Below, piece after piece: positions 15,407 through 19,975 of a stretch of DNA of 32,000 nucleotides. Within the stretch, counting starts at the first letter, position 1, and every line of letters starts with the position of its first letter. Under the pieces are notes generated by a model. That model did no database searches and was not told the origin of the DNA. It saw nothing but the letters and a program-made list of their open reading frames with translations. The stretch covers positions 330,001 through 362,000 of the forward strand of contig OW818668.1 in assembly GCA_942493105.1 (NCBI GenBank), given 5' to 3'. Origin of the DNA: an uncultured Erysipelotrichaceae bacterium (GTDB lineage: Bacteria > Bacillota_I > Bacilli_A > Erysipelotrichales > Erysipelotrichaceae). The translations under genes were made by a program, and so were the position numbers.

Positions 15407-15425
15407 AAAAAAGCCCTTAAGGCTT
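15407..15425 (-). terminator. Weak hairpin terminator at the end of the redox/permease operon
   Basis: The minus strand reads AAGCC-ttaag-GGCTT followed by TTTT. The stem is only 5 bp. Confidence 0.4.
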
Positions 15426-15429
15426 AGTG

Positions 15430-15774
15430 TCAACGATGAATAATGAATCTGTATTTATGCTTCTTTTGATAAATTCGATAAACGATGTATCCTAAGCAAA
15501 ACCCTAGGCTAATGATCATAATGATCCAATTCTTAGTGAGAAGACTATTGATCGCCAAGGCACCGAAATGAAAGAACATGATGATCAATAAATCAGAGTT
15601 TAGTTTGAGTCGTCGCTTGGGATAGATATACAAGATATACATTCCAATTCCGATAAATTCTAAATCTACGAGCAATTTCCAAAAGTCTTTGTCCATGATG
15701 TTTGAAAACGCTGAATAAAGGAGAAACAAGATTCCAATCCATAAGATTATTCTAGGTAGTTTCTGACGATTCAT
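15430..15774 (-). CDS. Small membrane protein (114 aa), unknown function
   Basis: Four hydrophobic segments. The start lies 2 nt after the upstream permease stop, suggesting translational coupling. Confidence 0.5.
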   Translation of the reverse strand: MNRQKLPRIILWIGILFLLYSAFSNIMDKDFWKLLVDLEFIGIGMYILYIYPKRRLKLNSDLLIIMFFHFGALAINSLLTKNWIIMIISLGFCLGYIVYRIYQKKHKYRFIIHR

Positions 15775-15776
15775 TT

Positions 15777-16316
15777 CTATTTTTCGATTTTCAAAGCACG
15801 TGTATGTATTTCTTCAAGACCTTTGTGACCTAATACTTTTTCACTGATTAAAGCAATGCCCATGATCCCAACTATATTTAAGACAAATCGTGTCACCGTA
15901 AAAGGTAATCCCATCGATGCAGCTTCAAACATCAAAAGAGGAATCTTTGTAGTAGACCATGCACCAATCATAATCAATACATTTCTAAAAGAACTTCCTT
16001 TTTTAAGCAACATCAATGCTACAGGAAATCCTGCATAGAGCGGACCAGCTGCTGCTGAACCCAAGAGGAAAGCCAATAAGATTCCTTTAATTCCACTATC
16101 CTTACCCATTAAGTTGACCATGGTTTCGCGTTTGACCCATACATCCAACAAGCCTAAAAGAATAAATATTGGAGGTAAAACCATTGCCATTTCAGATAAG
16201 CTATTTATCGTTTTTGTAGAACTTGCATCAAACAAATCTTTATTGACAAAGAATAGGACCACATAAACAACGATCAAGATTAGAAATAAACGATATCTTT
16301 TTAGAGTTGTTTTCAT
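15777..16316 (-). CDS. Half-size permease, subunit 2 (PF03773/ArsP-like predicted-permease family)
   Basis: 179 aa. LLGSAAAGPLYAGFPVALMLLKKG is homologous to LGSITLIPGFIAFPLAAALIKSG of the upstream gene. ATGA start/stop overlap at 16313-16316. Confidence 0.6.
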   Translation of the reverse strand: MKTTLKRYRLFLILIVVYVVLFFVNKDLFDASSTKTINSLSEMAMVLPPIFILLGLLDVWVKRETMVNLMGKDSGIKGILLAFLLGSAAAGPLYAGFPVALMLLKKGSSFRNVLIMIGAWSTTKIPLLMFEAASMGLPFTVTRFVLNIVGIMGIALISEKVLGHKGLEEIHTRALKIEK

Positions 16317-16789
16317 TTTAGAATGACCCCCATGATTAAGGCAACAAAAAGAGAAAATAGAAATGCCAATCCATTTCTAAGATAAGCTGCCTTCTTCCCA
16401 AAGAATTTGATTTCCATCGGAAGAGTAACGATGCCTACCATCATTAAGGTCGAAATGAAGGCTGCGATCTGCATATAACCTGCTCCGCTTTTAATCAAAG
16501 CAGCTGCTAAAGGAAATGCTATAAATCCTGGTATTAAGGTAATTGAACCTAAAATCGATGCCAATAAGACGCCAACCCATCCAGAATCTCCTCCAATGAG
16601 TGAAGAGATTTGAGCAGGAGTCAAAATACTTAACACGAAACCAATCAATAATAGAATCGAAAGAAATTGAGGTAAGATATTCTCAAAAGACTTCCAAGCT
16701 TTTTTTAAAGCTTGGATCGTTTTTTCTTTAGACTTAAACCAAGAAAATCCTAATGCAATTGCAGCAATTACGTATACAGCATTATCCAT
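16313..16789 (-). CDS. Half-size permease, subunit 1 (PF03773/ArsP-like predicted-permease family)
   Basis: Start set at ATG 16789 (MDNAVYVIAAIALG...). It overlaps the last codons of the upstream regulator (..CACCATGGATAA). The track's longer start would read through the His-rich tail in another frame. Confidence 0.6.
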   Translation of the reverse strand: MDNAVYVIAAIALGFSWFKSKEKTIQALKKAWKSFENILPQFLSILLLIGFVLSILTPAQISSLIGGDSGWVGVLLASILGSITLIPGFIAFPLAAALIKSGAGYMQIAAFISTLMMVGIVTLPMEIKFFGKKAAYLRNGLAFLFSLFVALIMGVILK

Positions 16790-17510
16790 GGTGATGTCCT
16801 TCGTGGTTGTGTTTGTGTTCATGATTATGATCGCCACAACCAGCACATTCTTGTGCTGTCAAAGAAGTTGTTAAAGTCTTATTGAGATAAGCATCTAATG
16901 CTTCATCAGCTGTTTTATCTTGAGCATCAATACATTGCATGTTAAGTGCAACCAAACGATTATATGCACCTTTTCCCATAGATTTCATGATCAAAACATC
17001 AACACCTTTGTCTTTTAAGAACTGGGGACGTTCTTGATGGACATGCACATCATCATGAATGTCCTCTGTATTCACAACAACATTATTTTCGATTTCTACG
17101 ATTCTGAAATCATTACAATGACCAAAATGCTCAGCTACGTTTTGCCCGTTAAGGCCTATGGCGATTTTCAACTTGTTTTCTCCTGTTTCATGGTTTATTG
17201 AACGTGTGTTTAAAGGTGATTGTTCTACAAAATTGACAGGTCCGCCTTCTATTTCAAGAACTTTTCCCAAAACCAATGCTTGTGCGATCTTGACTCGAGC
17301 ACTGGCATAAATACGTTGTACCGTCGTACGACTGATATTCATGACCGTTGCACAATTTTCTTGACTGAGTCTTTCGAAATCACATTTACGAATGACTTCA
17401 AATTCATCCAGTGATAAAATGATTGAACCGTGTTCACCTGTCTTTTCAGGACTAAATTTACAACAAACCGGTTCTTCCATAATACTTCTAGATTTGAAAG
17501 GTCTTGGCAT
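16782..17510 (-). CDS. DUF134 (UPF0251 HTH) :: NifB/NifX-like cofactor-binding domain fusion with a Cys/His-rich tail; putative regulator
   Basis: N-terminus MPRPFKSR...FSP...LSLDEFEVIR...MNISRTTVQRIYASARVKIAQALVLGK matches DUF134. The middle, KIAIGLNG..VAEHFGHC..F.IVE....DVLIMKSMGKGAYNRL, matches the dinitrogenase FeMo-cofactor-binding fold (NifX/NifB-C). The tail is ECAGCGDHNHEHKHNHEGHHHG. Confidence 0.7.
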   Translation of the reverse strand: MPRPFKSRSIMEEPVCCKFSPEKTGEHGSIILSLDEFEVIRKCDFERLSQENCATVMNISRTTVQRIYASARVKIAQALVLGKVLEIEGGPVNFVEQSPLNTRSINHETGENKLKIAIGLNGQNVAEHFGHCNDFRIVEIENNVVVNTEDIHDDVHVHQERPQFLKDKGVDVLIMKSMGKGAYNRLVALNMQCIDAQDKTADEALDAYLNKTLTTSLTAQECAGCGDHNHEHKHNHEGHHHG

Positions 17511-17520
17511 AGAACTCCTT

Positions 17521-17538
17521 TATGAACATATGTTCATA
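17521..17538. promoter_or_regulatory. Perfect 18-bp palindrome TATGAACATATGTTCATA (operator; core equals the Cheo/LexA box GAAC-N4-GTTC)
   Basis: Seen directly. Starts 3 nt downstream of the -10 element and abuts the AAGGAG RBS of the DUF134-NifX gene. Confidence 0.6.
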
Positions 17539-17541
17539 ACT

Positions 17542-17569
17542 AGTATACATCTCTTTTAAATTAATGCAA
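17542..17569 (-). promoter_or_regulatory. Internal sigma-A-type promoter for the DUF134-NifX/permease genes
   Basis: The minus strand reads TTGCAT (17569-17564), 16-nt spacer, TATACT (17547-17542). Confidence 0.5.
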
Positions 17570-17583
17570 GAAAAAAGAATTGG

Positions 17584-17907
17584 TTATTTAACCAATCCAA
17601 ATTTCCATGATCCAACGCCACCAATATTGTGGACATCTGTATAGCCTGATTTCTTTAGGAAGTCTGTAGCATCACCTGCTCTGGCTCCACTTAAACAGAT
17701 CACAAATATTTTTTGATCTTTATTAGGCAGCATGCCTTGGACTTTTTGAGGCAAGGTATTCAATGGCACATTGACACTGCCTTTGACATGCCCTTCTCTA
17801 AACTCTTCCTTTGTACGCACATCAATCAATTTGATGGTTTTATCTGCCTGAAGCAATTCATAAGCTTTTTCCTGACTAAGATGATTTGATTTGAAGAAAT
17901 TGAACAT
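17584..17907 (-). CDS. Single-domain rhodanese (sulfurtransferase-type)
   Basis: 107 aa. Active-site loop VICLSGARAG (C-X4-R) in a typical rhodanese fold pattern (LIDVRT..EF..GH..G..N.P). Confidence 0.85.
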   Translation of the reverse strand: MFNFFKSNHLSQEKAYELLQADKTIKLIDVRTKEEFREGHVKGSVNVPLNTLPQKVQGMLPNKDQKIFVICLSGARAGDATDFLKKSGYTDVHNIGGVGSWKFGLVK

Positions 17908-18949: not shown

Positions 18950-19925
18950 TTAATGGGTATTTAAATATTCATTGGCAGCCAATGCTGCTTTTGCGCCTTC
19001 TGCAGCCGCAATGATGATTTGTTTGTATGGGCTTTGGATCATATCACCTGAAGCATATAATCCCGCACAACTGGTCTTCCCTAGTTCATCCGTGATCACT
19101 TCATTGCGTTCATTGAGATCAACTAAATGTTTGATTAACGATGTGTTTGGAATATTTCCGATTTCGATAAATAAGCCATCACCATCTATTCTTCTTTCGC
19201 TTTGAGTTACTTTATCAAGAACTCTTACACCGCTTAATGCATCTTCTCCAACGATCTCTAGGATCTGAGTTTCAAGATGAACCTTTATTCTTGGATTAGA
19301 CAACATCCTATCGATCAAGACTTGATCAGCTCGCAGCTGACTTCGATGAATCAAAGTAACGCTTTGTGCGACCATAGCCACATCGATGGGCTGCTTCAAC
19401 TGCTGAATTACCACCACCGGCAATCAAGACATCTTTTCCTTTATACAAAGGGGCATCACATATGGCACAATAGGCCACACCTCGATTTGAGTATTCGATT
19501 TCACCTTTGACATTGAGTTTCCTAGGAGTTGAACCCAAGGTTGCAATCAATGTTTTGGATCGATAACTTGTTTTATCGCTCAACATGACTTCAAAGACAT
19601 CTTCTTTCTTATCGATCGATACAACTTCAGCATCCTCTAAGATTGGGACATTTAATTCACTCACGTGACTTCTAAACTTTTCAGCCATCTCTTCACCACT
19701 GATTGAACTTAAACCAAGATAATTTTCAACCAATGAGGTATTCAATAATTGACCGCCTGTTTTTTTTGCGATCATCGCGACCTTACGACCTTTACGAGCT
19801 CCATATAATGCAGCGTTGTATCCTGAAGGTCCACCACCAATGATTAAGATCTCATAGAGTTCACCAGGCTTAGGTTTTATGTTTTGTTTGACTTCTTTAA
19901 GATTAAATCCAAAGTTTAAATCCAT
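18950..19925 (-). pseudogene. trxB: Low-MW thioredoxin-reductase-like flavoprotein, interrupted by a 1-nt frameshift at about 19388-19390
   Basis: Track ORFs 19326..19961 and 18950..19423 are consecutive parts of one gene: IIGGGPSG (FAD), CAICDAPLY (redox CxxC), AGGGNSAVEAA (NAD(P)H), then the frame changes at GCAGCCCATCGAT, continuing IDVAMVAQSVTLIHRS...GLYASGDM. Deleting one C of the CCC run restores the frame. The start at ATG 19925 is preceded by CAGGAGG. Confidence 0.8.
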
Positions 19926-19946
19926 AAGTTCCTCCTGACAACACAC

Positions 19947-19975
19947 ATTATACGGGGACACTTCTTGAATTTCAA
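19947..19975 (-). promoter_or_regulatory. Strong sigma-A-type promoter of the redox operon
   Basis: The minus strand reads TTGAAA (19975-19970), 17-nt spacer, TATAAT (19952-19947). The palindrome CTTGAAtTTCAAG (19964-19976) overlaps the -35. Confidence 0.7.
19954..19970 (-). repeat. 17-nt repeat ATTCAAGAAGTGTCCCC (inverted copy A), filling the promoter spacer
   Basis: 16/17 identical to the plus-strand sequence at 20697-20713, in inverted orientation. Confidence 0.7.

Follow-up and report, generated by a model that had tools for sequence, protein, structure and literature searches.

The stretch of DNA analysed here (the window) comprises 32,000 nucleotides (nt) from an uncultured Erysipelotrichaceae bacterium (assembly GCA_942493105.1, contig OW818668.1, positions 330,001 to 362,000), and positions within it are counted from its first letter. 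The genome is available as a single contig of 2.03 Mb (38% G+C, 99.6% complete). Its relatives are Erysipelotrichaceae metagenome-assembled genomes. The minus strand of the window carries an operon encoding a regulator in which a DUF134 domain is fused to a NifX-like domain (DUF134-NifX), two half-size permeases of the ArsP family and a small membrane protein. Between the promoter of this operon and the ribosome-binding site (RBS) of its first gene lies a perfect palindrome. Comparative evidence makes it likely that the palindrome is the operator of the adjacent DUF134-NifX protein, which would thereby repress its own four-gene operon. The features concerned are as follows, the hexamers and the palindrome being read directly from the sequence.

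17564-17569, minus strand: -35-like hexamer TTGCAT, of which TTG alone is kept among orthologues
17542-17547, minus strand: -10 hexamer TATACT, kept as TATAcT in 13 orthologous promoters and always 2-3 nt before the dyad
17520-17539, no strand: proposed DUF134-NifX operator, the perfect 20-bp palindrome TTATGAACATATGTTCATAA
17522-17537: 16-bp core of the palindrome, ATGAACATATGTTCAT
17515-17520, minus strand: RBS AAGGAG, 4 nt (ttct) before the ATG at 17510 and kept as aGGAG in orthologues
16782-17510, minus strand: DUF134-NifX regulator gene, 242 amino acids (aa), characterised by Pfam, NCBIfam, AlphaFold and Foldseek

The perfect 18-bp palindrome described in a first-pass annotation of this DNA (TATGAACATATGTTCATA, 17538-17521 on the minus strand) is present, and the dyad is longer than claimed, extending to 20 bp. 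Its placement between a TTGCAT-16-TATACT promoter and the AAGGAG RBS was likewise confirmed on the minus strand. The two hexamers are separated by a spacer of 16 nt, the 20-bp palindrome starts 2 nt past TATACT (the 18-bp form being preceded by 'agt') and its last base is the first A of the AAGGAG. Within the window, TTATGAACATATGTTCATAA is the sole perfect palindrome of at least 16 bp, and the exact site occurs in a single copy in the whole genome. Shuffled windows yield 0.19 perfect palindromes of at least 18 bp, while the motif GAAC-N4-GTTC is found once in the window against an expectation of 0.52, with one match per window in 41 of 100 shuffles. Taken alone, the palindrome is thus not statistically remarkable, and its significance derives from the invariance of its core across 13 orthologous promoters.

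The promoter itself appears to be weaker than its layout suggests. TTGCAT agrees with TTGACA at 3/6 positions and TTGCAT-16-TATACT with the consensus at 8/12; a consensus promoter scan did not list this promoter, because its -35-like hexamer fits TTGACA at only those three positions. TTG, TATAcT and their spacing to the dyad are kept across orthologues, some of which carry TTGACA or TTGACT. Transcription is predicted to start at about 17534-17535, that is, 7-8 nt past the -10 hexamer and inside the palindrome.

A motif search upstream of DUF134-NifX orthologues, as proposed in the first-pass annotation, revealed that the 16-bp core is kept at 13 orthologous loci. These loci are non-identical, with protein identities ranging from 83% down to 37%, and the genes upstream of them differ. 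The core ATGAACATATGTTCA(T) is invariant at all 13 and the 20-bp block is 97% identical, compared with 64-67% for the spacer and flanks. Such a pattern is clearly that of a phylogenetic footprint, in which promoter, operator and RBS follow one another in that order.

Conservation of this kind extends, in altered form, to the DUF134 family at large. Of 301 genomes sampled from each group, 61 of the Erysipelotrichaceae and 137 of the Clostridia encode the family domain (PF02001). Upstream regions were taken from about 100 DUF134 genes, and most of them hold a 16-bp dyad centred on CATATG. Under a strict criterion (a CATATG centre and no more than one mismatch in the five outer base pairs), 48 sites were found in 31.5 kb of sequence preceding 70 DUF134 genes of Erysipelotrichaceae, where 0.29 would be expected from the present genome, as compared with four sites in the remaining 146 kb of these loci (1.37 expected on the same basis); this amounts to an enrichment of about 165-fold over background. 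In the Clostridia sample, 10 strict sites were found in 13.7 kb upstream of DUF134 genes (0.13 expected, again from the present genome). Counted by gene, the dyad NNNNNC-ATAT-GNNNNN is present at the promoters of 45/70 Erysipelotrichaceae genes in its strict form and about 60/70 in a looser one, and at 10/31 genes of the Clostridia sample in its strict form.

The outer bases of the dyad vary by clade. The half-sites ATGAAC..GTTCAT characterise the clade of the present regulator, and the variant ATTGAC..GTCAAT often itself supplies the -35 element TTGACA; further forms are GATGGC..GCCATC, ATGTGC..GCACAT, ATGAGC..GCTCAT, AATGTC..GACATT and CGGT-ATAT-ACCG. In several DUF134 promoters two copies of the dyad bracket the -10 or the -35 hexamer, and where the DUF134 gene stands second, behind a small coiled-coil gene, the dyad precedes the first gene. 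Position therefore points to repression: the dyad falls on +1 in the present clade and on the -35 TTGACA in other clades, and several promoters are bracketed by two sites; such positions are typical of a repressor. Autorepression by promoter occlusion is accordingly the most likely mode suggested by the sequence comparison.

The same positional data bear on the possibility that the dyad functions at the RNA level, as a hairpin of the 5' leader with an effect on stability or translation, and not as DNA bound by a protein. A full transcript would form an 8-bp hairpin beside the RBS, with a computed energy of -9.6 kcal/mol for the 47-nt leader. Nevertheless, such a fold is ordinary (z of -1.8, or -0.95 when counted from the predicted start), the predicted start falls inside the left arm and the hairpin would leave the RBS uncovered. 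Further, the homologous dyad in other clades sits on the untranscribed -35, and the variation retains specific bases (CATATG, and G or T at -4) instead of arbitrary compensatory pairs. A role as a leader hairpin is hence most improbable.

The first-pass annotation offered two readings of the palindrome, namely a LexA (SOS) box and an autoregulatory operator of the DUF134 protein; the former is refuted here, while the latter gains comparative support. The SOS reading, under which the operon would be induced by DNA damage, arose from a genuine resemblance, as the central 12 nt (GAACATATGTTC, 17524-17535) are identical to the core of the idealised Gram-positive SOS (Cheo) box, the box of Staphylococcus aureus being CGAACATATGTTCT (PMC11442139). 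The bases flanking the GAAC-N4-GTTC core are, however, T and A instead of the C and G of the Cheo box, and the sequence CGAAC-N4-GTTCG has no copy anywhere in the genome, where GAAC-N4-GTTC occurs 31 times, mostly within open reading frames (ORFs). A search for lexA with PF01726 (LexA_DNA_bind) gave no match in this 99.6%-complete genome, although the domain was detected in 10 of 14 control genomes, and both S24-peptidase proteins (encoded at loci L001 and L002) carry N-termini of the XRE type, not the LexA type. Upstream of recA and uvrA no box was seen, the best matches there carrying 4/10 mismatches. As the domain search, the genome-wide box search and the recA/uvrA upstream search all speak against it, a canonical LexA box was rejected. 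The LexA reading retains next to no probability, and the likeness to the SOS box of Firmicutes (LexA/DinR), shared over the central 12 nt by a site with no other copy in the genome, is evidently a coincidence of sequence.

A third look-alike, not considered in the first-pass annotation, is the 12-2-12 operator of ArsR/SmtB-type repressors. The palindrome could be bound in trans by one of the metal-sensing repressors of this genome that resemble CadC or CzrA, which would place the His-rich protein and the permeases in a metal regulon. Operators of this family (SmtB, ZiaR, CzrA, CadC) share the core TGAACA-N2-TGTTCA and lie between the -10 and the start codon, with AATACCTGAACA-GA-TGTTCAAGTATT serving as the comparison sequence (PMC8790569, Table 2). 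The present site, written as TTATGAACA-TA-TGTTCATAA, is an inverted repeat near a promoter whose core TGAACA-TA-TGTTCA equals the 12-2-12 core, and the His-rich tail of an operon product is also in keeping with a metal regulon. Moreover, two CadC-like ArsR genes of this genome carry ACATATGAATATATGTTCAAGTGT and ACATATGAACAACTATTCATATGA directly past their -10 boxes; at 2-3 mismatches, no other intergenic sequence of the genome is closer to the palindrome.

Against this stands the absence of any ArsR gene at or beside the locus, the nearest HTH_5 gene being about 47 kb away. In addition, a complete genome of the same genus (G034) keeps ATGAACATATGTTCAT before its DUF134-NifX gene (L048) and has no CadC-like ArsR; its sole ArsR-like match is 30% identical and lies in a 252-aa frame. 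The DUF134 site is also a better palindrome than the operators of the ArsR genes themselves, and its outer arms read TTAT where the ArsR sites of this genome have CATA. Lastly, binding by an ArsR protein would leave unexplained why the half-site of other clades shifts to TGAC, TGGC or GTGC along with the DUF134 helix. Control in trans by an ArsR/SmtB-type repressor is consequently judged quite unlikely. The two ArsR operators lie outside the window, at L074:1790-1830 (C1:395308-395348) and L075:1320-1360 (C1:1338826-1338866), directly past the near-consensus promoters ttgaca-17-tataat and ttgacg-17-tataat, and such sites can confuse motif scans.

The co-variation of the operator with the recognition helix of the regulator provides a more direct link between the dyad and DUF134. 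In the present protein this helix (NISRTTVQRIYASAR) comprises residues 58-72. At locus L036, where the two permeases are 71% and 69% identical to those of the window and the regulator 43% identical, the helix reads NIGRATVQRIY and the operator ATGTGCATATGCCCAT. At L129, by contrast, the permeases are similarly close (71% and 67%) and the regulator is 37% identical, while the helix SRTTVQRIYASAR and the operator ATGAACATATGTTCAT are both identical to those of the window. It is therefore well supported by this comparison that the operator would follow the recognition helix of the regulator and not its permease targets.

The contrast generalises to 82 regulator-site pairs, for which the counts include shared ancestry and residue 66 is given in the numbering of the present regulator. 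With G at -4 of the half-site (GAAC, GAGC, GTGC, GGGC or GGGT), residue 66 is Arg in 22 of 22 distinct helix variants. With T at -4 (TGAC, TGGC or TGTC), Arg is seen in 3/37 variants, the others having K, Q, A, G, S, T, L or E. The half-site classes with G at this position are spread over separate clades within two bacterial classes.

DeoR of Bacillus subtilis offers a physical reason why DUF134 could read the dyad directly. With the DUF134 domain profile as query, DeoR (7bhy) is the best match in the PDB (E 9.6e-5), while phmmer with the DNA-binding domain as a single query sequence returned no PDB match. The full-length AlphaFold model consists of two confident domains linked by a disordered stretch, and the DNA-binding domain modelled alone reaches a predicted local distance difference test (pLDDT) of 87-96 over residues 31-80. 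Foldseek superposes this model on region 4 of sigma-70 and on the DNA-binding domain of DeoR at 0.4-0.9 Å (0.6-0.7 Å for the three-helix cores of the DeoR comparison). The E-values for the 45-residue core are at least 0.07 and thus not significant, with a probability of 1.00 and a root-mean-square deviation below 1 Å; the matches of the full-length model are dominated by the NifX domain.

The alignment places LNISRPTVSRLLQYAKEK of DeoR against MNISRTTVQRIYASARVK of the present regulator, the shared helix reading ISRPTVSRLL in the former and ISRTTVQRIY in the latter. In crystal structures of DeoR with DNA, Arg34 and Arg39 contact bases of the left half-operator TTGAAC-AAAA-TTTCAA, Arg39 contacting G4 of TTGAAC (PMC11229326). 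DeoR Arg34 aligns with the family-invariant Arg61 and Arg39 with Arg66, so that the residue which co-varies with G at -4 is the equivalent of the DeoR residue in contact with that G. The operators also agree in their 16-bp geometry and half-site (ATGAAC-ATAT-GTTCAT in the present case, compared with the left half-operator of dra-nupC-pdp), and DeoR (PDB 7BHY, 8R7Y; PMC11229326) is a repressor with a promoter-overlapping site, the role here proposed for DUF134-NifX.

The likeness has bounds. Homology is confined to about 38 residues; DeoR possesses a SorC sugar-phosphate effector domain, forms tetramers and requires a second half-operator, whereas the present protein combines a PRPxKxR/Cys segment at the N-terminus of DUF134 with a NifX-like domain and has one dyad, which lies over +1. 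Membership of the SorC/DeoR family was rejected, as the helix-turn-helix (HTH) alone matches and the C-terminal domain is NifX-like. By analogy, the DUF134 HTH would nonetheless work like the DNA-binding domain of DeoR, though the protein is not a SorC member.

These data also bear on the idea that another transcription factor, co-inherited with DUF134 operons, binds the dyad. Positional association alone cannot name the binder, which gives the idea some force. Nevertheless, DUF134 is the only gene consistently beside the dyads, across very different operon contents, and the half-site co-varies with the DUF134 helix residue at the position where DeoR contacts the equivalent base. A co-inherited factor of another kind is accordingly unlikely.

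The second domain of the regulator may explain what it responds to. Pfam assigns DUF134 (PF02001) to residues 3-91 with 76.9 bits against a cut-off of 27, with weak additional Sigma70_r4 matches in the HTH domain, and Nitro_FeMo-Co (PF02579) with 70.2 bits against a cut-off of 26.3, the NifX/NafY/ORP-like domain occupying residues 122-209; the protein ends in the Cys/His-rich tail ECAGCGDHNHEHKHNHEGHHHG. Foldseek relates the C-terminal domain to PH0822, TM1816, MJ0327, NafY, NifX and ORP with a probability of 1.00 and template-modelling (TM) scores of 0.7-0.87 against the targets. Its profile matches TM1816 with E 2e-19, and NCBIfam identifies a match to the C-terminal domain of MrpORP. The NifX/NafY/VnfX/ORP/MrpORP C-terminal family (PF02579) and the present domain share the fold and an invariant HFG motif; the latter differs in being fused to a DNA-binding domain and in having clade-specific His/Cys positions and a His-rich tail. 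In the present clade (16782-17160 of the window, minus strand; residues ~117-242), HFGxCNDF, IHDxxHVHxxRP and HECxGCG are conserved and the His-rich tail is of variable length. Distant DUF134-NifX proteins (P0077-P0079) carry the usual GHG motif instead. The clade's own Cys/His positions suggest a clade-specific metal site, and the NifX-like domain is the probable sensor.

Collectively, the proposal that the palindrome is the DUF134-NifX operator, already raised as an option in the first-pass annotation, is supported by the conservation of the site, the family-wide association of the dyad, the co-variation with the helix and the DeoR alignment. In the proposed mechanism, a dimer of the sigma-4/DeoR-like HTH would bind the two ATGAAC half-sites, with one recognition helix for each, and the bases would be read by the invariant Arg61 and the clade-specific Arg66. 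The operator would span about -4 to +16 of a sigma-70-type promoter, so that occupancy would block initiation and DUF134-NifX would repress the regulator, the two half-size ArsP-family permeases and the small membrane protein. The fused NifX-like domain with its Cys/His-rich tail would be the likely sensor, in which binding of a metal or metal-sulfur species would alter the affinity for DNA and thereby tune permease expression.

Several observations weigh against this proposal or limit its reach. One class of DUF134 proteins, about 158 aa long, has no CATATG dyad within 450 nt upstream of its genes, which shows that the rule is not family-wide; this class may use a different site or lack autoregulation. 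Its members (L040, L045, L103, L119, L121, L122, L125 and L128) share the N-terminus MARPxKWRRVEFIP and the helix SRQTFQRIL or SRPTFQRIL. The genomes are related and do not count as independent samples, so that fewer evolutionary events took place than the co-variation counts imply. The rule linking Arg66 to G at -4 is not absolute, for L061/L070 and L126/L127 pair Arg66 with TGAC and the half-sites of L133 are mixed. Cross-binding of the palindrome by the two CadC-like ArsR proteins is conceivable, since the site fits the 12-2-12 core and the two ArsR operators in the genome are similar. Lastly, a metal or metal-sulfur ligand is a guess by analogy with the known chemistry of the NifX family. 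The more specific picture is a tentative one, less likely than not to hold: a one-component sensor-repressor whose NifX-like domain and Cys/His tail would bind a metal or metal-sulfur cluster species, thereby releasing or tightening the HTH on ATGAAC-ATAT-GTTCAT and controlling a split ArsP-family permease that transports this species, together with a family code in which Arg66 goes with G at -4, and a residue other than Arg with T at -4 and G at -3.

As regards a wider regulon, the genome was searched for CATATG-centred dyads and for copies of the 16-mer carrying at most 4 mismatches. Apart from the two ArsR operators, the one intergenic near-match was a weak site at 1875749 beside unrelated genes. 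This site (C1:1875749-1875764, outside the window; ATGACCATATATTCAA) has 3 mismatches to the 16-mer and is located in a long AT-rich spacer that separates unrelated ORFs; it is probably a chance match. With one DUF134 gene and one exact site in the genome, the regulon appears to be local, consisting of the single operon of regulator, split permease and small membrane protein.

The first-pass annotation knew of no binding site for the DUF134 family, and full-text literature searches found none; no study of the function of DUF134/UPF0251/COG1342 was retrieved, only incidental mentions, and the dyads are not reported there as an operator class. DUF134 (UPF0251, COG1342) is widespread, and the operator would provide this functionally uncharacterised family with a role that can be tested. 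Together with the predicted specificity residue and the DeoR-DNA template, a defined operator could aid regulon prediction for genes of metal-sulfur handling in anaerobes and, if the residue-66 code is true, regulons would become predictable from sequence in hundreds of anaerobes. Furthermore, GAAC-N4-GTTC is common to at least four unrelated repressor systems (LexA, ArsR/SmtB, DeoR and DUF134), and motif scans that label it as an SOS box would mis-assign regulons in genomes without LexA.

The remaining features of the operon and its surroundings are listed below.

16313-16846, minus strand: first half-size ArsP_1-family permease gene (PF03773, weak, E 2.6e-4)
15777-16316, minus strand: second half-size ArsP_1-family permease gene (PF03773, 37.5 bits; conserved synteny)
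15430-15774, minus strand: gene for a 114-aa membrane protein, from the ORF list, 2 nt past the second permease gene
15411-15425, minus strand: terminator-like hairpin with a T-run, at the operon end
17577-17598, minus strand: terminator-like hairpin past the upstream rhodanese gene, its T-run leading into the -35

The first permease gene overlaps or abuts the stop codon of the regulator gene, and its true start is probably the ATG at 16822 or 16789, because homologues align from residue 13-21 of the ORF. It stands directly 3' of DUF134-NifX in L003-L006, L016, L036, L037, L039 and L129, and the module of DUF134-NifX with two half-size permeases is conserved across loci. The two permease genes overlap each other by 4 nt. 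The 114-aa membrane protein, probably encoded by the last gene of the operon, has no Pfam or NCBIfam match, and its homologues are found nearby in L003, L005, L006 and L007.

On the upstream side, the hairpin after the rhodanese gene runs into the -35, and the DUF134 operon is therefore insulated, with its own promoter. Farther upstream, before the PDO, Trx and rhodanese genes, a thioredoxin-reductase/AhpF-like gene (18950-19961, minus strand) is split into overlapping ORFs of 211 and 157 aa, with a change of frame in a C-run near 19385-19390 (…AVEAA | IDVAMVAQSVTLIHR…); the split reflects either a genuine frameshift or an assembly error in the homopolymer.

Some related loci depart from the arrangement of the window. 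A second DUF134 gene of G034 (L073:512-900; G034:C1:1311818-1312098) is split over two frames into pieces of 81 and 73 aa and retains two dyads of the TGAC/TGGC type about 290-330 nt upstream; the split probably marks a recent pseudogene or a sequencing error. In another genome of the same genus (G110; L007:3875-4207), DUF134-NifX has an identical operator, but behind it a second NifX-like gene, standing alone, takes the place of the two permeases, so that the module does not always regulate the same cargo. A DUF134-NifX gene from gut metagenomes (P0078, found on 171 contigs; L131:2050-3000) has ATTGACATATGTCAT at its promoter and is divergent from a split gene pair of the chromate-transporter family (Chromate_transp), which again places a DUF134 regulator beside a two-part permease.

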